A stretch of 64,000 nucleotides of DNA from assembly GCA_005889275.1 (NCBI GenBank), contig VBFI01000049.1, positions 7,214 through 71,213 on the forward strand, read 5' to 3'. This document shows positions 29,451 to 42,248 of this stretch, in pieces. The first letter of the stretch is position 1. The number at the start of each line of letters is the position of its first letter. The notes beneath the pieces were generated by a model that was not told the DNA's origin, made no database searches, and saw only the letters and a list, made by a program, of their open reading frames with translations. Origin of the DNA: Chloroflexota bacterium (GTDB lineage: Bacteria; Chloroflexota; Limnocylindria; P2-11E). The translations under genes were made by a program, and so were the position numbers.

Positions 29451-29873
29451 TCATTCGGCGTACGCCTTTTGCAGCCGCTCCGCGACCTGCTGCATCCAGC
29501 GCAGCTCGGTGAGTCCGGCGCGGCAGACCACCATGCCGCGCGTGAACGCGAGCCACGGCTTCAGCGTTCCGCCGAGCAGACCGAGCCAGGTCGCGCTCGT
29601 CGCGTCCACCTTCGGGCCGGGGCCCTTCGTGTCGGCGATCTCGGCGTGCAGGTTCCCATCCCCGGCCTGGAACTCCAGCGCGCGGCCGATGTCGGTGAAA
29701 CGGAGGAGCGCGCGACCCGCCTTCACGTCCTTCAGCGAGTCCCTCACGGTTCCGGTGGTGCTCGCCGCGGTGAGGATCCGCAGGACGATCTCGGGAACGT
29801 CGTTGCCCGAGCCGTCCGCCTTCGCACGCGCCTGCGCCTCGGCGAGCGCCGCCGAGAGCTCCTCCTTGGTCAC
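29451..29873 (-). CDS. SCP2 sterol-binding domain protein
   Basis: VTKEELSAALAEAQARAKADGSGNDVPEIVLRILTAASTTGTVRDSLKDVKAGRALLRFTDIGRALEFQAGDGNLHAEIADTKG...; GTG start overlaps the tsaD TGA (GTGA). Confidence 0.55.
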   Translation of the reverse strand: MTKEELSAALAEAQARAKADGSGNDVPEIVLRILTAASTTGTVRDSLKDVKAGRALLRFTDIGRALEFQAGDGNLHAEIADTKGPGPKVDATSATWLGLLGGTLKPWLAFTRGMVVCRAGLTELRWMQQVAERLQKAYAE

Positions 29874-30865
29874 GCGAGCTTGAGATCGCTGCGCACCGCG
29901 ACGGGGATCTCCGTCCCGCGGTGCCGCAGCGCGAAGAAGGCCGCGGCGCCGATCATCGCGCCGTTGTCGGTGCAAAGCGCCGGCGACGGGACCCGCAGCG
30001 GATGCCCGATGCGCCGCGCGATCTCCTCGCGCAGTGCGAGATTCGCGGCAACGCCGCCTCCGAGCAGCACCGTCTGCACCGCGTGCTCCGCGGCCGCGCG
30101 CGCCGTCTTCTCGGCGAGCATCTCGGTGATCGCTTTCTGGAAGGACGCGGCCACGTCCGCGACCGGGACCTCACCCTTCTTCTCGAGCTCGCGCACCAGT
30201 CGGAGGACGGCGGTCTTGAGGCCGCTGAACGAGAAGTCGAACCGGTCGGCCACCGCCGCCCGCGGCAGCGGGAACGCCTTCGGGTCGCCCGCTTTCGCGA
30301 CGCGCTCGATGATCGGCCCGCCGGGGAAGCCGAGATGGAGAAGCCGCGCGACCTTGTCGAAGGCCTCACCCGCCGCGTCATCGATGGTCCGACCGAGCGG
30401 ACGGAAGCGGCGGTGCGCCTCCATCAGCACGAGATCGCTGTGCGCTCCGGAGACCACGAGCACCACCGCCGGGAGCTCGGGCTCGGGCGTCGCCTCGCGC
30501 TCCTCGAGCCAGTTCGCGTAGACGTGTCCCTCGAGGTGATTCACACCGACGAAGGGCAGCCCCGCCGAGAGCGCGAGACCCCGCGCGTAGTTCGCGCCGA
30601 CGAGGAGGCACCCGATGAGCCCGGGGCCGACGGTCGCCGCGATCGCGTCGATCTCGGTGAGCTGGCAGCCGGCGTCGCCGAGAGCCTTCTCGGTCAGCGC
30701 GTCGATCGCGCGCAGATGCTCGCGTGCCGCCACCTCCGGAACGATGCCGCCCGTGTCCTGGTGCACGAGCTGTGAGGCGACGATGTTCGAGCGGATCCGC
30801 CTGCCGTCCTCGACGATCGCGACGCCGGTCTCGTCGCACGAGGTCTCGATCGCGAGGATCCTTAT
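29870..30865 (-). CDS. tsaD: tRNA N6-adenosine threonylcarbamoyltransferase TsaD (Kae1/YgjD); start codon unclear
   Basis: (I)RILAIETSCDETGVAIVEDGRRIRSNIVASQLVHQDTGGIVPEVAAREH...GVNHLEGH.... The family-consistent first codon is ATA at 30865-30863, overlapping the rimI TAA. Confidence 0.8.
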   Translation of the reverse strand: MRILAIETSCDETGVAIVEDGRRIRSNIVASQLVHQDTGGIVPEVAAREHLRAIDALTEKALGDAGCQLTEIDAIAATVGPGLIGCLLVGANYARGLALSAGLPFVGVNHLEGHVYANWLEEREATPEPELPAVVLVVSGAHSDLVLMEAHRRFRPLGRTIDDAAGEAFDKVARLLHLGFPGGPIIERVAKAGDPKAFPLPRAAVADRFDFSFSGLKTAVLRLVRELEKKGEVPVADVAASFQKAITEMLAEKTARAAAEHAVQTVLLGGGVAANLALREEIARRIGHPLRVPSPALCTDNGAMIGAAAFFALRHRGTEIPVAVRSDLKLA

Positions 30866-31380
30866 GGCTCGCTCTCCAGCGCGCTCTTGAGCTTCGCGAG
30901 ACGATCGCGCACCGGACGGTCGCGAAGACGCTCCGTCCACATGATGAGCGCGTCCTCGTTGTTGTCGGAGTAGTACCGGCGGCGCACGCCGGCGCGCCGG
31001 AACCCGTACTTCTCGTAGAGCTTCTGCGCCGCGAGGTTGGACGCGCGCACCTCGAGCGTGAGCCACTCCGCGTTGAGCGCCGCGGCCATCTCGAAGATCC
31101 GCACGAGCAGGCGCTCGCCGATCCGACGGCGCCGACTGTCGGGATGGACCGCGAAGGTCGTGATGTGCGCCTCGTCGACCATGAGCCAGAGGCCCGCGTA
31201 CCCGACGACGTGGTCGCCCTCGCGCGCGACGAGGTACCGCGCGTTCTTGTTCTGGGTGAGCTCGTGGCGGAACGCGTTCACCGGCCACGGAACCGGGAAC
31301 GACGCGCGCTCGACCTCCTGGACCGCGGCGACGTCGTCGAGGGTCATGTCCTCGATGACGATCGGAAAGGTGGCGACCAT
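30862..31380 (-). CDS. rimI: Ribosomal-protein-alanine N-acetyltransferase RimI (GNAT)
   Basis: 172 aa, ...RRRRIGERLLVRIFEMAAALNAEWLTLEVRASNLAAQKLYEKYGF.... Confidence 0.8.
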   Translation of the reverse strand: MVATFPIVIEDMTLDDVAAVQEVERASFPVPWPVNAFRHELTQNKNARYLVAREGDHVVGYAGLWLMVDEAHITTFAVHPDSRRRRIGERLLVRIFEMAAALNAEWLTLEVRASNLAAQKLYEKYGFRRAGVRRRYYSDNNEDALIMWTERLRDRPVRDRLAKLKSALESEP

Positions 31381-31391
31381 CTCCTCTGACT

Positions 31392-32126
31392 TTAGCTGCG
31401 CTTGGGCAGACCGAGCGCGCGTTCATCGGTGGGCGGCGGCGCGAAGGGCTGGTCGAACGACACGCGGATGGACGGCTGGCGGACGTACAGCGGCTCGATC
31501 TCGGCCATCTTCACCTGTTTTGTCGACTCGAGCTCCTTCCATCCGAGCTCGGCGAGGTAGCCCGCTCGCCGCATGCGCGATGCCGGTGACGCGAAGATTG
31601 CATTCGGGCCGAGGAGATCGCGAAGGGTCGTCTCGACCTCGGCATCGAGCTCGCCGACGAAGAGCGTGTGCGTGCCGATCTGCCGGGAGAGCTCGGGGAG
31701 CGTCGCGACGATGAACGGGGAGCGGCGCTGCCACTTTCGGTTGCGCTCCTGATAGAAGGCCGCGTAGTACTGGTCGCGACCGGCCGGGAGGAGCGGGCAC
31801 GTGCGCAGCTTCGAGGGCGCGTGCGGGTACGCGAGCACGTCGAGCGTGGAGATGCCCACGAGCGAGGCGCCGCTCCCGCGCGCGATCCCCTGCCCGGCCG
31901 CGATGGCGACGCGCAACCCCGTGAACGAGCCGGGGCCGGTCGCGACCGCGATCCGGTCTACCGACGCGAGGGCGGTGCGCGTCGACAGCAAGAGGCGCTC
32001 GATCGCCCCAAAGAGCTCGTCGCCGTGCCTGCGTTGCGCGCGCCAGGTCTCCTCGCCGAGGACGTCGCGACCGTCGAAGAGCGCGACCGAGGCCCACTCG
32101 GTCGAGGTGTCAAGCGCCAACAACAC
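31392..32126 (-). CDS. tsaB: tRNA threonylcarbamoyladenosine biosynthesis protein TsaB (YeaZ)
   Basis: MLLALDTSTEWASVALFDGRDVLGE...IAVATGPGSFTGLRVAIAAGQG.... Confidence 0.85.
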   Translation of the reverse strand: MLLALDTSTEWASVALFDGRDVLGEETWRAQRRHGDELFGAIERLLLSTRTALASVDRIAVATGPGSFTGLRVAIAAGQGIARGSGASLVGISTLDVLAYPHAPSKLRTCPLLPAGRDQYYAAFYQERNRKWQRRSPFIVATLPELSRQIGTHTLFVGELDAEVETTLRDLLGPNAIFASPASRMRRAGYLAELGWKELESTKQVKMAEIEPLYVRQPSIRVSFDQPFAPPPTDERALGLPKRS

Positions 32127-32607
32127 TCGTGCGAAGCTCCCCCACGAGCGCGGCGGATCGCGGCCCGGTCGCCTCGATGACGACCCGCCGTTTGGTGTCC
32201 GCGATGGGCTCGAGCCGGATGTCGAGGCGGTCGTCGGGCAGCGCCGCGCCGGCTCGGTCAGGCCACTCGATGACCGTCACTCCGCCCGCCTCGAGACACT
32301 CCTCCCACCCGGTGTTCGTGAGGTCGGCGCCTTCGAGGCGGTAGAGATCGATGTGAAAGAAGGGCAGACGACCGCCGAAGCTCTCGCGAAGGATGATGAA
32401 CGTCGGGCTCGCCACGTCGCTGGCGTCGATCCCGAGGCCGATCGCGACCCCCCGCGCGAGCACGGTCTTCCCGGCTCCGAGCTCACCCCAGAGCGCGAAC
32501 ACGTCGTTCGGCCGGGCCGACCGCCCGAGCCGCTCCCCGAGCCGCTCGGTGTGGAGCGAGGAGTGGCTCACCAGATCGAGCGCCGGTCGCTCACGCGGAT
32601 CGGCCAC
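32110..32607 (-). CDS. tsaE: tRNA threonylcarbamoyladenosine biosynthesis ATPase TsaE (YjeE)
   Basis: ...ERLGERLGRSARPNDVFALWGELGAGKTVLARGVAIGLG...; GTG at 32607-32605. The N-terminal part of the track ORF is read-through. Confidence 0.75.
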   Translation of the reverse strand: MADPRERPALDLVSHSSLHTERLGERLGRSARPNDVFALWGELGAGKTVLARGVAIGLGIDASDVASPTFIILRESFGGRLPFFHIDLYRLEGADLTNTGWEECLEAGGVTVIEWPDRAGAALPDDRLDIRLEPIADTKRRVVIEATGPRSAALVGELRTSVVGA

Positions 32608-32938
32608 TCGCCGCTCCTCTCTGAAATTTGCGGCGCTCAAGGACGAGCCGAATCGTAATGCCGAGGAACGACCCGAAGAGCGCGGCCCAGATGGCCAGCC
32701 AGATCTCCTGCGGGACCGCGCAGAAGAGCGCGATGCCGCCGTTGCAGCCGAGCGCTCCGGCGAGCGGTATGAATCCAAGCGCGCCGACGATGGTCCGCCG
32801 CCGGTTCAGCGACCGCTGCTGCGATGCGAACGCCTCTCGTCGCTTCTCGCCGGCGCGCGATGCGCGCTTCTCTTCGCGGCCCTGCCGATCTTCGCCATCG
32901 GTCTGGGGCCGGTCCCGCCGGCGGCGCCGTCGTGCCAC
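32591..32938 (-). CDS. Small hypothetical membrane protein (two TM helices); start uncertain
   Basis: C-terminal 70 aa: IVGALGFIPLAGALGCNGGIALFCAVPQEIWLAIWAALFGSFLGITIRLVLERRKF. The Arg-rich N-terminus is probably not translated. Confidence 0.35.
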   Translation of the reverse strand: MARRRRRRDRPQTDGEDRQGREEKRASRAGEKRREAFASQQRSLNRRRTIVGALGFIPLAGALGCNGGIALFCAVPQEIWLAIWAALFGSFLGITIRLVLERRKFQRGAASGRSA

Positions 32939-32947
32939 CTCGCGAGG

Positions 32948-35104
32948 CTAGCGCGGCTCGTCGACGCGACGAACGTTGGCCGCCGGAAAGACCTCATCGG
33001 CGCAGCGCACCGCTTGGGCGCGGACGCCGCTCGCGAACTCCGCCTCGCCGGCCGCCGCGCAGTCCGCCGTGACGACACGAACGCCGCCGTAGTCCGCCGC
33101 GATGGCGATCGACGGCGCGGTCGTCGCGGTCTCGATCGCGTCGGATGGCGCGAAGACGAAGAGCCGCGCCGTGGCGGTGTGGATCGCGGCACGCGAACCG
33201 GCGAGCGCTTTCAGCGGGCCGAAGAGCTCGCGCGGAAGCGCAGCCGCGCCGAAGCCGATCAGGGAGAGGACGGTCGGCCGATCCTCCCGGGTCGCGAAGC
33301 CGCCGATCAAGGCACCGTCGTCGTACACCACGCGCAGCCCCGCCGCGGGCACGGCGCCGCCGACGATCCCCGCGATGCCGCACGCGTGCGCCCGGGTCAG
33401 CGCCTCCGCGGAGACGCGAGCGCCGCCGATGACGATCCGGCCTCCGATGCGCACGTCCAGGCGTCCCGGCGAAAGCTCTCCGCTCGGCGAGTCGACAGCG
33501 AGAAGGAGCTCGCCGACCGCATCCGGACCGTAGGCGGCGAAGCCGCCCAGCCCCCACGCCGACCCCTCGACGGTGACGACCGCGTCGTCCGAGCGGGTCA
33601 CCGAGCCGTCGAGCGTCGAGCGGATGACCCATCGGCCGACCACCGGAGCGAGGTACAGGTCACCGTCGGCGGTGATCTGCAGGACCCGGCCGTCGTGCGG
33701 CGCCGTGACCGCCCGGGCGAACCGCCGTCCCGTCCGCGCGATGACCGTCCGCGCGGGGATCTCCGCGCCGACCGGGACGCGCAGCACCCGGTCGAGATCG
33801 TCCGGCTCGAGTCCGAGGCGGCGCGCGCCGCTGAGCCGCGTCGGCGTGGCGAGCATCAACCCGGCGGCGATGACGTCACCCGCATTGACACGATCTCCGA
33901 CCGGCGCCCGCTCGACGCGGCCGATCGGCAGCGGGTGATCGGCCGACCAGGTCGCGTACCGCCAGCCCACTACGGGTGCTTCCCGGGGAACGCACCCGCG
34001 CTTTGGTGCCACCGGACGAGGACCGGCAGTCGTTCGGCGTCGCGATGCGGCAACGGCAGCGAGCTTCGCCGCGCGTCGTCCCCAGACCGTGACGACGAGT
34101 CCGAGACGCTCGGCGCGTCCGTCGTCAGGCTCGCGCCAGACCGTGACCACGCCGGTCGGCTGAAGCCCATCGACGAGGACGAGGAGTGTCTCCGCGGGCC
34201 GAGGGAACCCCGCGGCGCGGCCGGTCACGAGCATGTTCGGCGCGGCCCGCAGCTCGGAGACGTCGATGCTCGCGCGCTCCGCCGCCCGGACCGCCGCGGC
34301 GATCGTCTCACGCGCGACGGCCATCTCGATCGCGAGCGCGAGCTCGCTCGCGGGAAGGGCGCCGGGCCATCGCGCGCGGTTGTAGATCCGTTCGAGCAGC
34401 GCGGGCGCGTCGATGGGCCAGGGCAGCCAGCGGCGCACGCCGTCGGCGCCGACCTCGGCGAGGATGCGATCGACGGACGCGCCGATCCCGGCTCGCGTGA
34501 GATGAACCGACTCGATCCCGCCGACCGCACGCGCGAGCACGCACGAGGTGGTCGTCTCGGTGACGTCGACGACCAGCCCGCTTGAGCCCGTCGACGCCAC
34601 GAGCGCTCGTGCCGCGTCCTCGACGAGCTCGTCGCGGAGCGCGGCGTCCGGCTGGGCCGACCGGCGGAGTGCCCGGAGCGCGACGAGCGCGGCCGTCGCG
34701 TCGGCGTGGACGTCCAGGACGAAGGGGTTCGCCGCCGGTCGCAGCCGCTCGCCGACGCGGGCGTCCGCGACGACATGCACCGTCGGCCGCGGCCGCTGGA
34801 ACGCGCATCCGAGGCGGAGCGCCTCGAGCGCCACGGCGACGCGCCGAACGTCCCGTCCGTCGCAGGCGATGAGGACCGCGTCGGGCGACGCGTCGCGAAA
34901 CGCCTGCGCGATCTCGACGAGCGAGCCCCGGTCGTCGGCCGCGACGGCGAGGACGGCGTCAAGCGACGCCGCGAGGGCGATGCGGGAAAGAAGGACGCGG
35001 TGCCGCGCGTCCCGCCCGTAGACCAGCGCGACACGAAGGTGCCTCGCGAGGCCGACGACGCTCGGCTCGACCGGGGTCTCTGGCTCCCCGGTCGAGACGG
35101 TCAC
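32948..35104 (-). CDS. Large uncharacterized protein (about 718 aa); a possible actin-like ATPase segment and a barrel-sandwich hybrid-like segment; family not recognized
   Basis: GTG start at 35104-35102 overlaps the C26 amidotransferase TGA (GTGA). Motifs: ...TGSSGLVVDVTETTTSCVLARAVGGIESVHLTRAGIG... and ...PVGDRVNAGDVIAAGLMLATP...HDGRVLQITADGDLYLAPVVGRWVI.... Confidence 0.5.
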   Translation of the reverse strand: MTVSTGEPETPVEPSVVGLARHLRVALVYGRDARHRVLLSRIALAASLDAVLAVAADDRGSLVEIAQAFRDASPDAVLIACDGRDVRRVAVALEALRLGCAFQRPRPTVHVVADARVGERLRPAANPFVLDVHADATAALVALRALRRSAQPDAALRDELVEDAARALVASTGSSGLVVDVTETTTSCVLARAVGGIESVHLTRAGIGASVDRILAEVGADGVRRWLPWPIDAPALLERIYNRARWPGALPASELALAIEMAVARETIAAAVRAAERASIDVSELRAAPNMLVTGRAAGFPRPAETLLVLVDGLQPTGVVTVWREPDDGRAERLGLVVTVWGRRAAKLAAVAASRRRTTAGPRPVAPKRGCVPREAPVVGWRYATWSADHPLPIGRVERAPVGDRVNAGDVIAAGLMLATPTRLSGARRLGLEPDDLDRVLRVPVGAEIPARTVIARTGRRFARAVTAPHDGRVLQITADGDLYLAPVVGRWVIRSTLDGSVTRSDDAVVTVEGSAWGLGGFAAYGPDAVGELLLAVDSPSGELSPGRLDVRIGGRIVIGGARVSAEALTRAHACGIAGIVGGAVPAAGLRVVYDDGALIGGFATREDRPTVLSLIGFGAAALPRELFGPLKALAGSRAAIHTATARLFVFAPSDAIETATTAPSIAIAADYGGVRVVTADCAAAGEAEFASGVRAQAVRCADEVFPAANVRRVDEPR

Positions 35105-35808
35105 CGTGCCGAGGCCGTGGTGCGCGCGGCCGCCGCGACGAAGGCGTCGAAGATGCGGCGTGCCTCGGGCGAGACCTCGGCGGTCCGCTCGGGATGCCAC
35201 TGGACGCCGAGGACCCAGCGCTGATCCGTCGCCTCGAACGCCTCGACGAGTCCGCCGACCGCGGCCGTCGGGACAAGACCACGTCCGAGGAGCTCCTCGG
35301 TCACGGCCTGGTGGTGCCGCGAGTTCACGTCGAGCCGCTCGCTCCCGCAGGCTTCGGCGAGCTTCGAGCCGCTCCTCACGATCACCTCGCGATGGGCGCG
35401 GACGCCTCCCGGGTCGTCGGGCTCGTGGTCGTCGACGTGCAGAACGAGCTTTCCGCCGCGCGCCACGTTCAGGACCTGGAAGCCACGGCAGATGCCGAGG
35501 ACCGGAAGGTCCCGAGCGAACGCGCGCGTCGCCGCGTCGAGCTCCAGCTCGTCACGGGGCGGATCGGGCTCCTTCGCGAGGTGGCCCGGATCGGACTCGC
35601 CGTAGCGGCCCGGCGCGATGTCCGGCCCGCCCGCGATGCAGAGGGCGTCGACGTCAGCGGGAAGCTCGTCGCCGGGCTCGACGACCACGACCTCGGCGCC
35701 GGCCCGCTCGAGGGCGTCGACGTAGCTCCGGCGCGACGCGAGTGAGCGCGCGGTGGTGGCTTTTCCGATCGTGAGGGCGACGCGCGGCCTTCGCTCCACC
35801 TCCGTCAT
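35101..35808 (-). CDS. Class I glutamine amidotransferase-like / gamma-glutamyl hydrolase (peptidase C26, PuuD-like)
   Basis: ...DALCIAGGPDIAPGRYGE...LPVLGICRGFQVLNVARGGKLVLHV...GVQWHPER... (Cys-His catalytic pair). Confidence 0.75.
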   Translation of the reverse strand: MTEVERRPRVALTIGKATTARSLASRRSYVDALERAGAEVVVVEPGDELPADVDALCIAGGPDIAPGRYGESDPGHLAKEPDPPRDELELDAATRAFARDLPVLGICRGFQVLNVARGGKLVLHVDDHEPDDPGGVRAHREVIVRSGSKLAEACGSERLDVNSRHHQAVTEELLGRGLVPTAAVGGLVEAFEATDQRWVLGVQWHPERTAEVSPEARRIFDAFVAAAARTTASAR

Positions 35809-36230
35809 GGTATCGGCGCGCGAAGGCTCGCGCGGTCGATGAGCTCGACGAGGACGCCACCCGATGCGCGAGGATGCAGGAAGGCCACGTCGCCCTCGGC
35901 TCCGCGGCGCGGCGCGCGGTCGATGAGCTCGACACCGTCGCGCGCCAGGCGGGCCAGCGTTCCGTTCAGGTCGTCCACGACGTAGCAGATGTGGTGGAGC
36001 GTCGGCCTCCCGCGCTCGGCGACGAAACGGCCCACGCCGCTTTCGGCGTCGAGCGGCTGCACGAGCTCGATGCGCTGGCCGCCGTCGCCGATGAAGATCA
36101 CGCGCACGCGCTGATCCGGGATCTCACGGATTTCGCCGCCGGCGAGGCCGAGCGTCTCGCGGAAGAACGGAAGCGCGTCCTCGATCCGCGGCACGGCGAT
36201 GGCGACGTGATGGATCGCGCCGAGCTTCAC
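35805..36230 (-). CDS. mce: Methylmalonyl-CoA epimerase (VOC/glyoxalase family)
   Basis: 141 aa, [28 protein letters not shown]...[13 protein letters not shown]...[14 protein letters not shown]. Confidence 0.75.
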
Positions 36231-37897
36231 GAGCGCGGCGGGACGTACGCGCCGAAGACCGCGCGCAGATCGGCGCAGATCTCCCCGAGGGTCACGTCGG
36301 CCTCGACCGCGGCAAGGATGAGCGGCACGAGGTTCGCGCTCCCCCGAGCGCCCGCTGTCAGGTCGGTCCGCACCTTCTTCGCTCGTGCGCCGTCGCGGTG
36401 CGCGCGGAGGGCGGCGAGCCGCTCGCGCTGGCGCGCGACGACCGTTTCGTCGACACGGGTGATCGGGACACGCGATCGGTCCTCCGTGTCGGCGAACGCG
36501 TTCACGCCGACGATCAGCTTCTCCCCGCGCTCGATCGCCTGTTGCTGCTCGTAGGCCGAGTCCTCGATCTCGCGCTGCTGATAGCCCCGCTCGATGCCGG
36601 CGAGCGCACCGCCGAGACGGTCGATCTTCGCGATCTCCTCGTGGACGCGCCGCTCGATGTCGGCGGTGAGCGCCTCGATCGCGTACGCGCCGCCGAGCGG
36701 GTCGATGGTCTCCGCGACCCCGGACTCCTCGGCGATGATCTGCTGCGTCCGGAGCGCGACGCGGACCGACTCTTCCGTCGGCAGGCCGAGGGCCTCGTCG
36801 TACGCGTTCGTGTGGAGGGACTGGGTTCCGCCGAGCACGGCCGCGAGCGCCTCGATGGCCGTCCGGACGATGTTGTTCCGCGGCTGCTGCGCGGTCAGCG
36901 TCGAGCCCATCGTCTGGGTGTGGAACCGAAGCGCGAGCGAGGCCGCGTCCTTCGCTCCGTACCGGTCGCGCATGATCGTCGCCCAGATCCGTCTCGCCGC
37001 GCGGAACTTCGCGACCTCCTCGAGGAGCGTGCTGTGCGCGGCGAAAAAGAAGGAGAGCTGCGGCGCGAAGCGGTCGACGTCGAGGCCTCTTTCCACAGCG
37101 GAGTCCACGTACGCGATCGCGTCCGCGAAGGTGAACGCGAGCTCCTGCACGGCGTCCGCGCCCGCCTCGCGGATGTGGTAGCCGCTGATCGAGATGGGGT
37201 TCCAGCGGGGCAGCTCCGACGCGCAGTAGGCGATGAGGTCGGTCGCGAGGCGCATCGAGGGGCGCGGCGGGAAGATGTACGTACCCCGCGCGATGTACTC
37301 CTTCAGGATGTCGTTCTGCGTGGTGCCGCCGATGCGGTCCGCGGTGACGCCCTGCCGCCGCCCGACCGCCACGTACATCGCGAGGAGGATCGGCGCGGTC
37401 GCGTTGATCGTCATCGAGGTCGTGACCTCTCCGACCGGGATGCCCTCGAAGAGCCGCGAGAAGTCGTCGAGTGAGCTCACCGAGACGCCGACCTTCCCCA
37501 CCTCACCGGCGACCTCGGGATCGTCCGCGTCGTAGCCCATCTGGGTGGGAAGGTCGAACGCAACCGAGAGACCGGTTTGCCCGTGCTGCAGCAGATAGCG
37601 GTATCGGGCGTTGGATTCCTCCGCCGTCCCGAAGCCCGCGTACTGGCGCATCGTCCAGAGGCGGCCGCGGTACATCGTCGGCTGGACGCCGCGGGTGTAC
37701 GGCGGCTCGCCGGGAAGACCCGGGTCGGCTCCATCGGGATCGAAGACCGGCGGGAGCGGCGTGCCATACGTGGTCGCGAATTTCGCGCGCTCCCCAACGC
37801 GTTTGGTCGCTTCCGCGTACTTGGCGCGCTCCCATTCAGCGCGGTCGCGGCTTCGCTTCGGCACCGTGCCGATGGTACCGGCCGGTATCTTCGCCAC
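36227..37897 (-). CDS. Acyl-CoA mutase large (substrate-binding TIM-barrel) subunit without a B12 domain, paralog 1 (MCM/ICM family)
   Basis: 556 aa, ...[58 protein letters not shown].... It stops before any B12-binding domain. Confidence 0.85.
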
Positions 37898-37900
37898 GCG

Positions 37901-40270
37901 TTAGCGGGCCCTGAAGACGAGCGTTCCCTCGAGCTTGCCGAGACGATCGCGCGAGAAGCGCATCGGCTTGTAGTCACCGGCCGCCCAGAGCGGCGTCTGG
38001 TCGCGCGAGAACGCCGACCCGGCCTGGCCCGATTCGCCGACCGGGATGATCGAGACGGAACGGTCGAGGTCCGCGAGGTCCGCGATCATCCGTTCGGAGG
38101 GATGGGTGATCACCGCGTACGGCTTGGCGAGCGAGTACGTCTCCTTGTTGACCGAGTTCTCGTCGCCGGGACGGCGCAGCGGACCGACGTTCAGCAGCAG
38201 GGCGAGCGGACCGACCGCCAGCGGATGCGCGAACGTGATCGTGTGCGCGTCGCCCCACCGCCACGTCGCCAGATCCGGACCGAGGCGCCGCCCGAGCTCG
38301 AGGAGCGCGTCGCCGAGCGCGACGCCGGCGAGCGCGTCTCGGCCCCGCACGGCGGGGTCGCCGATCTCGGAGAACCAGGGATCGTCGGCGCGACCAACAA
38401 GCCGGTACAGCGCGGCGACAGCGCGGCCGTCGTCGAGATACTCCGTGAAGAGCGGCTCGCCGAGCTTGTCGGCGAACGTGCGCTGGACCATGTGCACGAG
38501 CCACGCCTCGTAGATCGCGGCCGCCGGCGAGTCCGCGCCAAGCGAGCCGTCCCACCCGCGCACGATGGCCTGGGCCTGGCGCCCCAGGTCGGTGCGGGGC
38601 GTCGCGGCGAGCAGCGCGTCGCGGAAACGCGCGACCGGTGAGGAGGTGAAGTCGGTCTGGAGCGCGCGGGTCGACGCGATGTCCGCCTTGCCCACCGCGT
38701 CGAGCCGTCGCGAGATGTAGGCCGCCCGGAAGCCGGGATCCCACTCGCCGACGTATCCCGCGGACTTCGGATCCGCTGAGGGCCGGTCGTTGGCGTTCAC
38801 GATCACGCCGCTCGGTGGATCGAGGATGCTCGGGTTCGCGTCCGCGGGAAGTAGCCCGGTCCAGTCGTACTCGCCGGTCCACCCCGGCGCGGGCATGCGC
38901 CCGTCGCCGGGCCGCGCGGGTAGCCGGCCCACGAGCTGATAGCCGATGTGTCCGTCGACGTCGGCGTAGCAGGTGGAGACGGCCGCGCCCTGGAAGTCCG
39001 CGGCCGCCGCGCGGAAATCGGCCCAGCTTCGCGCCCGCGCGACCTCGAGAAGCCAGTCCACGACATGGCCGGGATCGAGCGACGTCCAGCGAAGCGCGAG
39101 CTGCGCGGTCTGCCCCTTCAGCGTCGAGGTGACGATCGGTCCGTGGCGCGTGGTGACGACGTCGAGCAGGACCGGGTCCGCGCGGCCTTTCACGAGGATC
39201 TCCTCGCGGACGACGGCGGCGCTCTCGAAGGCACCGCGGTACTCATAGCGCCGTGGATCGGTCGGATCGGTCCGCTCGACGAAGAGATCCTGGGTGTCGG
39301 CGTACGCGTAGGTGAGGCTCCAGGCGATCCGGTCGTTGTGCCCGATCACGACGGCGGGCGTACCCGGGAGCGAAAAACCGACGACCTTGTAGCCGGCCCC
39401 CTCGAGCCCGATCTCGTACCAGATCCCCGGGTTGCGCACCGCGAGGTGCGGGTCGCCGGCGAGGAGCGGTTTTCCCGTGGCCGTTCGCGCGCCCGCGAGG
39501 GCCCAGCAGTTCGAGCCCGACGAGCCTCCCGCGCCGGGGACGATCTCGCGCAGGGCGGCCAGGCCGGCGTCGACCGAGCTCGTCGAAAGGAGCGGCGCGA
39601 CCAGGGCCCAGGCGTGCTCGTCGACGGCGCTCGCGGACACGCCCGACGGATCGGGCATGAGCGTGTCGAGCGCCGCGGTCCCGAGACGGAGCGCGATGTT
39701 CGCGCGAAGGATCTCCTGCGCCTCGTTCCCGGAGGCGTCGAACGTCTGGAGCTTCCCCACGACGATGGAGTCGGTCGCCGTCCAGCGATCCGGCCGGTAG
39801 CCGAGGAGCACGAACTCGAGCGGGAGCGACTCGCCGTGTTGCTCGAGGAACTTGTTCACCCCTTCGGCGTACGCGTCGAGCGCCGCGCGCCCGTCGGGCC
39901 GCAACACCAAGAGCTCCTGCGCCGCGACGCGGGCGAACCCGAGGGTGCGCATCGAGCGGTCCGCTTCGAGACCAGGCTCGCCGAGCACCTCGGCGAGGCG
40001 CCCTTCGCCGGCGCGCCGGTAGAGGTCCATCTGGAAGAGCCGGTCCTGCGCGGTGACGTACCCCTGGAGGTAGAAGAGGTCGTGCGCGTTCTGCGCGTAC
40101 ACGTGGGGGACGCCGAAGGCGTCGCGCAGCACCTCGGCCCGCTGCTCGATGCCGAGGAGGCGGTACTCGCCGTCGATCGTCGGGAGCGGCCGGTACACGA
40201 GGATGAGCCCCGTGACCACGACGCTCGCGACGAGGAGCAGCGCGCACCAGGCCGCCACCTTCGCTTTCAT
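37901..40270 (-). CDS. Penicillin amidase / acyl-homoserine-lactone acylase family (Ntn hydrolase), secreted
   Basis: 789 aa, N-terminal TM/signal, ...YLQGYVTAQDRLFQMDLYRRAGEGRLAEVLG.... Confidence 0.75.
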   Translation of the reverse strand: MKAKVAAWCALLLVASVVVTGLILVYRPLPTIDGEYRLLGIEQRAEVLRDAFGVPHVYAQNAHDLFYLQGYVTAQDRLFQMDLYRRAGEGRLAEVLGEPGLEADRSMRTLGFARVAAQELLVLRPDGRAALDAYAEGVNKFLEQHGESLPLEFVLLGYRPDRWTATDSIVVGKLQTFDASGNEAQEILRANIALRLGTAALDTLMPDPSGVSASAVDEHAWALVAPLLSTSSVDAGLAALREIVPGAGGSSGSNCWALAGARTATGKPLLAGDPHLAVRNPGIWYEIGLEGAGYKVVGFSLPGTPAVVIGHNDRIAWSLTYAYADTQDLFVERTDPTDPRRYEYRGAFESAAVVREEILVKGRADPVLLDVVTTRHGPIVTSTLKGQTAQLALRWTSLDPGHVVDWLLEVARARSWADFRAAAADFQGAAVSTCYADVDGHIGYQLVGRLPARPGDGRMPAPGWTGEYDWTGLLPADANPSILDPPSGVIVNANDRPSADPKSAGYVGEWDPGFRAAYISRRLDAVGKADIASTRALQTDFTSSPVARFRDALLAATPRTDLGRQAQAIVRGWDGSLGADSPAAAIYEAWLVHMVQRTFADKLGEPLFTEYLDDGRAVAALYRLVGRADDPWFSEIGDPAVRGRDALAGVALGDALLELGRRLGPDLATWRWGDAHTITFAHPLAVGPLALLLNVGPLRRPGDENSVNKETYSLAKPYAVITHPSERMIADLADLDRSVSIIPVGESGQAGSAFSRDQTPLWAAGDYKPMRFSRDRLGKLEGTLVFRAR

Positions 40271-40272
40271 CG

Positions 40273-40767
40273 CTACTCGCTCGCGATGACGACGAGGACG
40301 CTTCCGCCTTCCACTTTCGTACCCGCGCTCGCACCAATCTTCGTGACGCGACCCGCGGCCGGGGCGCGGAGCTCGTTCTCCATCTTCATGGCCTCCAGGG
40401 TCGCGAGTGGCGCGTCCTTCGCGACGGCGTCGCCCTCTTTCACGTGAATGGCCTTGAGGAGCCCGGGCATCGGTGCGCGAATCTCGACGCGGCCGGAGCC
40501 GGCGCGGGGGGCGCCGCCCCGTGCACGCGCGGCTCGTTCATCGACGACCGCGACGCGGACCTCGGTCCCGTTCACGTCGACGCGCATGGGATCGTGGCCG
40601 AGCAGGGTGACCTCGTGGCTCTCGCCATCGAGCGTCACGGACCAGAGCCAGCCGCGCACGATCTCGCGGACCTCGGCGGCGACGGCGCGATCGTCGATCG
40701 TGAAGCGGCCGTCGGGCGTCAGCTCGACACGAACGAGACGCTCGTCGAGCGTGACCTCGTAGCGCAT
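40273..40767 (-). CDS. Biotin carboxyl carrier protein (BCCP) of an acyl-CoA carboxylase
   Basis: C-terminus ...GDAVAKDAPLATLEAMKMENELRAPAAGRV... (biotinyl-Lys EAMKM). Confidence 0.8.
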   Translation of the reverse strand: MRYEVTLDERLVRVELTPDGRFTIDDRAVAAEVREIVRGWLWSVTLDGESHEVTLLGHDPMRVDVNGTEVRVAVVDERAARARGGAPRAGSGRVEIRAPMPGLLKAIHVKEGDAVAKDAPLATLEAMKMENELRAPAAGRVTKIGASAGTKVEGGSVLVVIASE

Positions 40768-42248
40768 CAGCGGAGCCCATCCTCACGGGCCGCGCGCGCC
40801 CAGGCCGTATCCGTGGGCGTCGCGGCGCGGCGCTCGGTCCGCGACCGCACCGCGAGGACGGCGGCGAGCGCGCCGGCGGCGGCCGCGCCGTCGGGGAGGT
40901 CGCCGCGCTCGGCGGGGGGCCAATGGGTCGGGACGTAGTCGGTGTCGTACTGCCCGGCGAGGAAGTCGGGCTCGCCCATCGCGTAACGAAGAAAGGGCAG
41001 CGCGGTCGGAACGCCGGCGACGCGCATCTCGTCGAGGGCGCGGCGCATCCGGGCGACCGCCTCGGCGCGGTCGCGGCCGTGGGCGATGACCTTCGCGAGC
41101 AGCGGGTCGTACTCGCTCGGCACGGTCATGCCGGCGAAGAGCGCGGAGTCGACGCGGACGCCCGGCCCGGCGGGCTCACGAACGAGCGCGACGATCCCGC
41201 CCGCGGGCAGGAACCCGCCGAACGAATCCTCGGCGGTGACGCGGCACTCGATCGCGGCGCCTCGGCGGACGATGTCGCCCTGCGCGAACGGCAGCGGCTC
41301 GCCCCCCGCGATGCGCAGCTGCAAGGTCACCAGATCCAGGCCCGTGACCATCTCGGTGACGGGATGCTCGACCTGCAGGCGGGTGTTCACCTCGAGGAAG
41401 TAGAAGCGCCCGTCCCCGTCGACGAGGAACTCGACCGTCCCAGCGTTGGTGTAGCGGACGGCCTTCGCGACCTTGACGGCGGCGACGCCGAGCCGACCCC
41501 GCAGCTCGTCGTCGACCGTCGGCGCGGGCGACTCCTCGACCAGCTTCTGATGCCGCCGCTGGATCGAGCAGTCGCGCTCGCCCAGCCAGACCACCTCGCC
41601 GCGCGCGTCGCCGAGGATCTGCATCTCGATGTGACGCGCGTGCGGCACCAACCGCTCGACGTAGAGGGCCGGCGCTCCGAACGCCGTCATCGCCTCGCCG
41701 GTGGCCCCCCGCCATGCGGCGGCGAACTCCGACTCGTCCGCGACCGCGCGCATGCCCTTCCCGCCGCCGCCGGCGGCGGGCTTCAGCAGCACCGGATAGC
41801 CCATGCGCTTCGCCGCGGCGCGCGCCGCCGCGACGTCGCGGAGCGGCTCGGTCCCTTCCGCGAGCGGGACGCCCGCCTCGCTCGCGACGCGGCGCGCCGC
41901 CGTCTTCTCGCCGAGGAGCCGCTGCACCGTCGCCGGCGGGCCGATGAAGACGAGGTCCGCGGCGGCGACGGCCTGGGCGAAGTCGGCGTTCTCCGCGAGA
42001 AAGCCATAGCCCGGATGGACCGCGTCGCAGCCCGCGCGTTTTGCGACCTCGATCAGCCGCGCCGCGTTGAGATAGCTCTCCTTCGGCGCGGCTCGGCCGA
42101 TGGGATAGGCGGCGTCCGCGGCTCGCACGTGGAGTGCGTCGCGGTCGACGTCGCTGTACACGGCGACCGCGCGCATCCCAAGGTCGTGACACGCGCGGAT
42201 GATCCGAAGCGCGATCTCGCCGCGATTCGCGACGAGTACGGAGGTCAA
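40767..42248 (-). CDS. accC: Biotin carboxylase subunit
   Basis: 493 aa, MTSVLVANRGEIALRIIRACHDLGMRAVAVYSDVDRDALHVRAADAAY...GYPVLLKPAAGGGGKGMR.... Confidence 0.88.
   Translation of the reverse strand: MTSVLVANRGEIALRIIRACHDLGMRAVAVYSDVDRDALHVRAADAAYPIGRAAPKESYLNAARLIEVAKRAGCDAVHPGYGFLAENADFAQAVAAADLVFIGPPATVQRLLGEKTAARRVASEAGVPLAEGTEPLRDVAAARAAAKRMGYPVLLKPAAGGGGKGMRAVADESEFAAAWRGATGEAMTAFGAPALYVERLVPHARHIEMQILGDARGEVVWLGERDCSIQRRHQKLVEESPAPTVDDELRGRLGVAAVKVAKAVRYTNAGTVEFLVDGDGRFYFLEVNTRLQVEHPVTEMVTGLDLVTLQLRIAGGEPLPFAQGDIVRRGAAIECRVTAEDSFGGFLPAGGIVALVREPAGPGVRVDSALFAGMTVPSEYDPLLAKVIAHGRDRAEAVARMRRALDEMRVAGVPTALPFLRYAMGEPDFLAGQYDTDYVPTHWPPAERGDLPDGAAAAGALAAVLAVRSRTERRAATPTDTAWARAAREDGLR

Follow-up and report, generated by a model that had tools for sequence, protein, structure and literature searches.

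The closest described relatives of the gene considered here are the GlmL/MutL proteins (PF13941; NF040745, TIGR01319) and the Or-4 protein of ornithine degradation (NF040744). GlmL, an accessory protein of glutamate (methylaspartate) mutase, is described in an earlier article (PMC4682846). DdrA/GdrA, EutA and BcrA/BadF/HgdC have the ASKHA fold in common with it at the superfamily level, and for a second gene beside the first, RnfC/NqrA and the biotin/lipoyl carriers serve for comparison. The locus lies in a 64,000-nucleotide stretch of DNA from a Chloroflexota bacterium of the Limnocylindria (assembly GCA_005889275.1, contig VBFI01000049.1, positions 7,214 to 71,213), hereafter the window, which has a G+C content of ~70%. 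On its minus strand, an open reading frame (ORF) at 32948..35104 runs uninterrupted through 718 codons from a GTG at 35104..35102 to a stop at 32950..32948. An identical 718-aa protein is deposited at NCBI as TMF27199.1 ('MAG: hypothetical protein E6I28_04670 [Chloroflexi bacterium]', where MAG denotes a metagenome-assembled genome). As an initial annotation of the sequence had reported, the GTG overlaps the TGA (35103..35101) of an upstream C26 amidotransferase gene (GGTGA), and the peptides quoted there are present in the translation. What was taken for one protein is very probably the product of two neighbouring genes, coupled in translation, that a single 155-nt deletion has joined into a chimera. 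In their intact form, the first gene encodes a divergent and probably ATPase-dead member of the GlmL/MutL superfamily and the second its conserved, uncharacterised partner.

When the whole ORF was used as the query, 75 homologues were found, which are almost all 423–444 aa long and can be aligned only to ORF residues 1 to ~350. In pairwise alignments, identity extends as far as residue 348 (...RRAAKL) and is followed by an abrupt divergence, even against the 97%-identical relative P0002. Residues 379–718 are matched by a separate protein family of ~340 aa with at least 502 members. The soil contig from ENA that encodes P0002 (locus L001) shares 99% identity with the window across 5.2 kb and carries two genes here, of 429 aa and 340 aa, with a TAGTG stop/start overlap. 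The two-gene arrangement is also present at L002, L086, L087, L088 and L089, which is every other related locus examined, with gene 1 encoding 426–433 aa and gene 2 328–340 aa at identities down to ~50%. In a 90%-identity cluster listing, separate 429-aa and 340-aa proteins are found at least 15 times on independent ENA, JGI and Logan contigs, and the 718-aa form is a singleton. The reading of the ORF as a single protein was therefore not borne out, since the related loci hold two genes and the homologues cover one half each; evidence for two genes is what the initial annotation had itself named as grounds for giving that reading up. For database annotation, TMF27199.1 is best treated as a deletion chimera, and no 718-aa protein family should be built on it.

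When all possible single cuts were compared exhaustively, one was uniquely best: the window lacks exactly 155 nt relative to L001 (2672–2826), with the junction between 34062 and 34061. Outside the deletion, the window and L001 differ by 51 mismatches in 5210 nt with zero other indels. An imperfect direct repeat of ~20 nt flanks the deleted segment and the exact microhomology at the junction is ~4 nt. Since 155 is 3 × 51 + 2, the frame of gene 1 shifts into the frame of gene 2, and since the 90 intervening nt are free of stops in the shifted frame, a single 718-codon ORF is the outcome. The linker of 30 codons is the C-terminus of gene 1 translated out of frame; in the other frame, the window DNA just past codon 348 still encodes LPLPHRDAERLPVLVRWHQSAGAFPGKHP followed by a stop, which is the C-terminal end of P0002. 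Lost with the deletion are gene 1 residues ~349–400, comprising the GxLGVLIDARGRP motif and six β-strands of the C-terminal domain. This segment is conserved family-wide (invariant G388, G391, D395, A396, R397, G398 and P400) as well as in the longer homologues of other phyla introduced below and, as a result, the window is taken to represent the derived state.

Among the sequences examined, the deletion was seen in this MAG contig alone, and it may represent either true variation at strain level or an error of assembly. The 24-mer spanning the junction was not found in JGI metagenome contigs, where the corresponding 24-mer of the intact allele was found once. A microhomology of ~4 nt somewhat disfavours a mis-join in a k-mer assembly graph and favours a real variant. 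Should the deletion allele prove real, the part contributed by gene 1 would probably be non-functional or crippled, because the deletion removes the conserved C-terminal domain, and the sequence of protein 2 would be intact. Other irregularities were observed in gene 1 relatives that are 93–98% identical. P0004 has a 19-aa in-frame deletion at residues ~75–93 and P0003, from a 1969-nt contig, switches to an unrelated C-terminal sequence after residue 329. Either the gene 1 locus is structurally variable in the population or it is prone to assembly error.

The relationships of gene 2 provide the route to those of gene 1. Judged by its sequence, gene 2 is a divergent member of a very large uncharacterised family of 'KOW domain-containing proteins'. 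Searches with the window protein gave no match in Pfam or among PDB sequences, and its close homologues of ~340 aa (at least 502) are all unannotated and all from Chloroflexota/Limnocylindria-type sources. A profile of this family (A1) searched against 1.84 billion representative proteins identified 1029 relatives, mostly of 350–450 aa, some with weak RnfC_N, NQRA_N, Biotin_lipoyl and KOW matches. A search with a more diverse alignment identified at least 8000 family members, all listed at E ≤ 1e-5, and those that carry a name are called 'KOW domain-containing protein' or hypothetical. A comparison of A1 with a family of ~375-aa proteins from other phyla (A4) by hhalign gave a probability of 99.8% (E 2.9e-30, 271 columns), with homology over a barrel-sandwich N-terminus and a central GG(S/A)R...(T)EGFG motif. 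A terminal (V/F)P.ANV is also common to gene 2 and its relatives. Relative to the ~375-aa proteins, TEGFG is reduced to (I/L)GFG in Limnocylindria and the C-terminal region is divergent, the KOW region of the partner being left unaligned by hhalign. Weak KOW matches were obtained for the relatives P0214 and P0229 but none for the window protein when searched against Pfam; an AlphaFold2 model shows β-strands at the C-terminus.

The AlphaFold2 model of gene 2 is good for residues 1–140, a β-rich barrel-sandwich region. A Foldseek search of the PDB returned weak matches to barrel-sandwich hybrids (E ≥ 0.011), namely the BesA adaptor, the BCCP domain of pyruvate carboxylase, GcvH and NqrA. Together with the Pfam matches of the relatives, these results uphold the earlier suggestion of a split hybrid-barrel-like motif, as the C-terminal half of the ORF begins with barrel-sandwich hybrid domains. 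Along its length, the gene 2 protein may be divided into a pair of barrel-sandwich hybrid domains, an α/β region in the centre and a C-terminus that is KOW-like. The N-terminus resembles the barrel-sandwich domain of RnfC/NqrA, and the relative P0229 matches RnfC_N at 35.7 bits against a cut-off of 25.6; however, the likeness is limited to this one domain, and gene 2 has neither a Complex1_51K domain nor an Fe-S motif. Nor does gene 2 qualify as a biotin/lipoyl carrier, since the candidate hairpins GDRVNAGDVIAAG and VGAEIPARTVIART lack a lysine and no Pfam match was obtained.

The hidden Markov model (HMM) of A1 finds a gene 2 homologue in 80 genomic loci collected around the ~375-aa relatives in Planctomycetota, Acidobacteriota, Poribacteria, WOR-3, Fermentibacteria, Ignavibacteria and others, and neighbours at these distant loci were scored by HMM matches to all ORFs. 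In 47 of the 62 loci that extend far enough upstream to be informative, the gene immediately upstream on the same strand encodes a long form of MutL, with a gap that is mostly between –61 and +30 nt. These long MutL proteins are ~605 aa in length and consist of a full-length PF13941 domain (2.6e-127) with a C-terminal extension of roughly 120–150 aa. They score under the cut-offs of the GlmL, Or-4 equivalog and TIGR01319 models. It is these proteins, directly upstream of the gene 2 relatives, that provide the decisive link for gene 1. When the gene 1 family was compared with 35 long MutL proteins, hhalign returned a probability of 99.6% (E 1.2e-23), with gene 1 residues 36–429 collinear with long-MutL positions 127–616, including the C-terminal G.VG.ilDaRGRPl motif; three HMMER blocks gave the same collinearity. 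Intact gene 1, at ~430 aa, is thus a divergent member of the long MutL branch of the GlmL/MutL ASKHA family.

Direct searches with gene 1 leave a fainter trace of this relationship. No Pfam or NCBIfam match was obtained for the 718-aa ORF of the window. Among the family members, 58 of 69 match PF13941 ('MutL protein') with a best E of 1.5e-9 and always at profile positions ~288–353. Intact gene 1 has no NCBIfam match, and its PF13941 scores lie at or under the gathering score in the case of P0002 (14.9 bits, cut-off 27); P0019 reaches 29.4 bits over positions 288–353 of 450 only. A full-length match to PF13941, TIGR01319 or NF040745 above the curated cut-offs was not obtained for gene 1. Among PDB sequences, neither the profiles of the two families nor a long MutL protein used as a query found a meaningful match.

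Structural prediction is in agreement with an ASKHA relationship. The AlphaFold2 model of P0002 (pLDDT 90.7, pTM 0.90) presents three parts: a (βα)5 domain at residues 24–150, an RNase-H-like β-β-β-α-β-α-β unit from residue 176 (LVVDVTETTTS...), and a β domain at 332–396 followed by a terminal helix. Foldseek matches in the PDB were weak (E ~2e-4, TM-score ~0.2–0.3) and consistently ASKHA: N-acetylglucosamine kinase, acetone/acetophenone carboxylase, Hsp70, ParM/MreB, diol dehydratase reactivating factor and BcrA-type activators. An actin-like relation of the MutL/GlmL type, which had been raised as a possibility for the ORF, is therefore supported by the PF13941 matches, the hhalign comparison and the top Foldseek matches. 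The flavodoxin-like N-terminal domain was considered as a B12-binding domain and rejected, since PF02310 gave no signal up to an E of 10 and the domain aligns with the normal insert of MutL.

Where gene 1 departs from long MutL is in the nucleotide site. The first ~125 residues of long MutL have no counterpart in gene 1, so that the ATDCGSTTTKA (phosphate 1), RGEAPTTVE and YISTSSAGGGLQM motifs are absent. At phosphate 2, VDIGGATTD of long MutL is replaced by the consensus VDVtErsTS, and SGGVLSHAPR by iTGr.AsfPr, so that neither the phosphate-2 nor the adenosine motif keeps its glycines in the gene 1 family. The phosphate-loop-like LVVDVTETTTS that had been noticed in the ORF is a true homologue of the ASKHA phosphate-2 loop VDIGGATTD, albeit in a degenerate form. 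The pair of nucleotide motifs expected of an ASKHA protein, an N-terminal DxGSTxTK and a central DIGGATTD, is not found in gene 1. Retained are the Rossmann-like insert, the second RNase-H-like subdomain and the C-terminal β domain with GxLGVLIDARGRP, in which G.VG.ilDaRGRPl.lP of long MutL corresponds to the consensus G.LGvLIDARGRPL.LP. Given that the phosphate-1 motif is missing and phosphate 2 is degenerate, the gene 1 protein is probably no longer an ATPase.

A comparison with the known systems places gene 1 closest to long MutL. Like GlmL/MutL, to which it is homologous (as it is to Or-4) via the long MutL branch, gene 1 has an ASKHA-type second subdomain with a Rossmann-like insert and, like GlmL, it occurs in an operon with a B12-dependent carbon-skeleton mutase. 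Unlike GlmL/MutL, it lacks the first ~125 residues and phosphate 1, its phosphate-2 and adenosine motifs are degenerate, and its C-terminal β domain extends ~100 aa beyond the PF13941 and related models of 448–459 positions. While GlmL lies between glmS and glmE, gene 1 adjoins a methylmalonyl-CoA mutase (MCM) block and is found in neither a glmS-glmL-glmE nor an ornithine/lysine aminomutase setting. Gene 1 is also always paired with the barrel/KOW protein; to our knowledge, GlmL is not. With long MutL and its ~375-aa KOW partner, the gene order and the tight coupling are the same as for genes 1 and 2, the partner following in each case. The C-terminal G.VG.ilDaRGRPl-type motif is kept in intact gene 1 members and deleted in the window copy. 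The differences are that long MutL proteins carry all of the ASKHA nucleotide motifs, unlike gene 1, and that their operons continue with DUF6754 and multi-transmembrane (TM) proteins, while the Limnocylindria pair sits in a block extending from MCM to tsaE.

The remaining ASKHA systems are more distant. The likeness of gene 1 to DdrA/GdrA, EutA and BcrA/BadF/HgdC is at the level of the superfamily fold (Foldseek 2d0o_A, E 6e-4; 9gba_D, E 1.6e-3). Membership of the DdrA/GdrA or EutA groups is not supported, as gene 1 has no Pfam, NCBIfam or PDB sequence match to them, the TM-score is only ~0.2 and the nucleotide motifs are missing. Membership of the BadF/BcrA/HgdC-type ATPases, which are characterised by the BcrAD_BadFG model and a cysteine pair bridging a [4Fe-4S] cluster, is likewise not supported, as gene 1 has no Pfam match of this kind and only weak Foldseek matches to 9gba_D and 7yyl_E.

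From these comparisons, the pairing of a MutL-like protein with a KOW-family protein is ancient and frequent, and its link to a mutase is confined to Limnocylindria. Gene 2 follows gene 1 with a 1–4 nt overlap in the window, L001, L087 and L088. Natural fusions of MutL and the KOW family into a single ORF are also known: P0247 (995 aa), L011 (14–2626), L074 (15–2063) and L026 (8711–11140). P0247 has a full-length MutL domain (PF13941, 2.8e-128) joined to a gene 2 family domain and retains the sequence GLIIDCRGRP. The fused ORF of L026 begins at MutL profile position 159, and its N-terminal part may be in another frame, possibly as a result of a long-read frameshift. Based on the tight adjacency across phyla and these independent fusions, the proteins of genes 1 and 2 most likely form a complex. 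Contact would probably be made through the C-terminal β domain that is conserved in the MutL-like protein: of the long-MutL extension, Limnocylindria keep this part only, and it is encoded directly before the partner gene. At an intact locus, the ~430-aa MutL-like protein, having lost its N-terminal part, would act as a scaffold that neither binds nor hydrolyses ATP, and the complex as a whole would be a scaffold or adaptor that works without ATP hydrolysis.

Several points weigh against this picture. In 15 of the 62 informative loci, and in L084 and L085 as well, the gene 2 homologue has no adjacent MutL, so the partnership is not obligatory; in the WOR-3 and Poribacteria loci, the KOW-family gene without an adjacent MutL is found in unrelated contexts. 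The complex is an inference only, and the loss of ATPase activity is read from motifs only. The gene 2 model is poor (pLDDT < 50) at residues 183–243, which is the best-conserved stretch of the protein.

With respect to function, the adjacency to MCM in Limnocylindria suggests by analogy that the native pair could serve there as an accessory, chaperone or reactivase of the B12-dependent mutase, in the manner of GlmL/MutL, DdrAB or EutA, although such a role seems unlikely. The homology of gene 1 to the GlmL/MutL family is consistent with it, as is the presence of the diol dehydratase reactivating factor 2d0o_A among the Foldseek matches. The order MCM-epimerase-amidotransferase-gene 1-gene 2, stop/start overlaps included, is found at six of six Limnocylindria loci down to ~50% identity, and the operon coupling that had been noted from the window alone is thereby real and conserved across this group. 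However, the same conserved block also holds tsaEBD and gcvTHP and the synteny is not specific to the mutase; with synteny extending over the whole block, adjacency to the mutase becomes weak evidence of a functional link. Known reactivases of B12 enzymes are ATP-dependent, which is at odds with the absent phosphate-1 and degenerate phosphate-2 motifs of gene 1, and the known chaperone of MCM is MeaB. The long MutL proteins, for their part, fall below the GlmL, Or-4 and TIGR01319 cut-offs, as given above.

The full-length pairs of other phyla also speak against a mutase accessory. No relatives of MCM, epimerase, C26 amidotransferase, penicillin amidase or TsaE were found by tblastn (1e-5) in 83 loci covering 1.31 Mb. 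The survey of gene neighbourhoods that had been recommended for co-occurrence with a C26 amidotransferase therefore yielded no instance in these loci outside Limnocylindria. Instead, in loci of the Planctomycete type, the pair is followed on its 3' side by DUF6754, with an fn3 domain, and then by multi-TM proteins of ~230, 300 and 340 aa. This operon of Planctomycetota and other phyla, whose members are all uncharacterised, was seen at L036 (8172–15043), L083 (5718–15670), L010, L028 and others, and at L083 an 8xMP 'octameric membrane protein' is encoded between the MutL and KOW genes. The 'glutamate mutase L' label of PF13941 accordingly covers a branch that was not found adjoining methylmalonyl-CoA mutase in those loci. 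As for the ligase/reactivase-type protein that had been proposed for the ORF, the ATP-binding motifs are missing or degenerate, and an ATP-dependent reactivase or ligase is unsupported and unlikely. A ligase partner for the C26 amidotransferase is not supported either, there being no ATP-binding or synthetase domain present.

A broader proposal, to be given little credence at present, is that the long MutL ATPase and the KOW protein, joined in many phyla by DUF6754 and the multi-TM proteins, make up a widespread, uncharacterised and ATP-driven machine associated with the membrane. Limnocylindria would have kept an ATPase-dead two-protein core along with a two-TM protein, recruited as a nucleotide-independent accessory of the B12 mutase or of the C26 amidotransferase. 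If true, this core would be hard-wired into the propionyl-CoA/methylmalonyl-CoA operon of Limnocylindria.

That gene 1 is a decaying, pseudogene-like remnant of long MutL, with the window deletion as a further step of loss, is highly improbable. The lost N-terminal domain and nucleotide motifs would fit with decay, as would the structural variants P0003 and P0004 among near-identical sequences. Nevertheless, the family is strongly conserved, with a mean column identity of 71% and 52 invariant columns over members of 423–444 aa that range down to 48% identity, and the AlphaFold2 model is a confident one. The window and L001 differ by 9 synonymous and 4 non-synonymous codons, a number too small for relaxed selection to be judged. 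Conservation extends to the start overlap with the amidotransferase gene and to the close spacing between genes 1 and 2. Least credible is a genuine bifunctional protein arising from a selected MutL-like and barrel/KOW fusion: natural fusions of this kind are known and the deletion does leave a stop-free frame into gene 2, but no second copy of the 718-aa form was listed among near-identical sequences, two genes are present at every other Limnocylindria locus, P0247 keeps its GLIIDCRGRP whereas the window loses this motif and most of the β domain, the linker is an out-of-frame gene 1 C-terminus, and the junction was not found in JGI metagenome contigs.

With two genes restored, a widespread and conserved pair of a long MutL and a barrel-sandwich/KOW protein comes into view, neither protein of which has a structure or a characterised member. 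No paper was found in literature searches on DUF6754, on PF13941, on glutamate mutase combined with the KOW domain or on MutL combined with reactivase. The Limnocylindria version, being devoid of ATP-binding motifs, may be viewed as a naturally occurring test of which part of the module can function in the absence of nucleotide hydrolysis. One further feature of gene 1 is a near-invariant N-terminal peptide, MTVSTG..PVE.. (residues 1–22; 35039–35104, minus strand), with S4, P11, V12 and E13 standing out. It is predicted to be disordered (pLDDT ~36) and may be a docking motif.

The features of the locus are listed in Table 1.

Table 1. Minus-strand features at and around the chimeric ORF, in window coordinates.
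Feature	Position	Strand	Remarks
TsaE	32110..32607	-	~165 aa by comparison with L001; heads the tsaE-tsaB-rimI-tsaD block
Small conserved protein, ~115 aa	32591..32938	-	between gene 2 and tsaE; two predicted TM helices
Gene 2	32948..33970	-	340 aa; its GTG at 33970 overlaps the gene 1 TAG by 1 nt
Gene 1, C-terminal remnant	33970..34059	-	native frame LPLPHRDAERLPVLVRWHQSAGAFPGKHP then stop; the fused ORF reads the linker AAVAASRRRTTAGPRPVAPKRGCVPREAPV
Deletion junction	34061..34062	-	155 nt of L001 (2672–2826) missing
Gene 1, native-frame part (codons 1–347)	34064..35104	-	N-terminally truncated, divergent long MutL (PF13941-related), ASKHA-like
Peptidase_C26 / class-I glutamine amidotransferase (GATase)	35101..35808	-	235 aa; PF07722 1.1e-41; GTGA coupling to gene 1
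Methylmalonyl-CoA epimerase	35805..36230	-	TIGR03081 121 bits, cut-off 115
MCM large catalytic subunit	36227..37897	-	556 aa; PF01642 4.8e-215; without B12-binding domain

The upstream genes had been described as coupled by ATGA junctions throughout. This is correct for the epimerase and the GATase, which overlap as ATGA at 35805–35808; MCM and the epimerase overlap at 36227–36230 as GTGA, with a GTG start. Beyond MCM lie genes for a penicillin amidase, the biotin carboxyl carrier protein (BCCP) and biotin carboxylase, and downstream of the pair are those for TsaE, TsaB and TsaD. Across Limnocylindria, the order reads PCC-beta (propionyl-CoA carboxylase beta subunit), biotin carboxylase, BCCP, penicillin amidase, MCM, epimerase, GATase, gene 1 and gene 2, after which come the ~115-aa two-TM protein, tsaE, tsaB, rimI, tsaD and, farther on, gcvTHP. 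There is no glutamate mutase among the genes of the surveyed region (29870–42248). Scanning the window for tRNAs and against Rfam, with a cobalamin riboswitch among the elements sought, gave no match, and neither did the PADLOC defence models against both proteins and the Planctomycete operon.

The ~115-aa protein has an extremely basic N-terminus (RRRRRRDR...) and no family match; it is also present in L001, L002, L086 and L087. Farther downstream, a mechanically called 518-aa ORF at 29870–31426 (minus strand) matches TsaD at residues 211–493 only. In relatives, RimI (172 aa) and TsaD (332–338 aa) are encoded by two distinct genes that overlap, and a 172-aa ORF occurs in the window at 30862–31380. 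The 518-aa ORF is thus probably an upstream over-extension of the kind that is typical of high-GC DNA and not a fusion. A 730-aa ORF at 32393–34585 on the plus strand is antisense to genes 1 and 2 and, given the conserved genes on the minus strand, is very likely a spurious product of high G+C content. The penicillin-amidase family gene (~790 aa; 37901–40270, minus strand) that separates the BCCP/biotin carboxylase genes from that of the MCM large subunit is an odd insertion in what is apparently a block for propionyl-CoA carboxylase and the methylmalonyl-CoA pathway, yet its position is kept in all of the Limnocylindria loci examined (the window, L002 and L086–L088).

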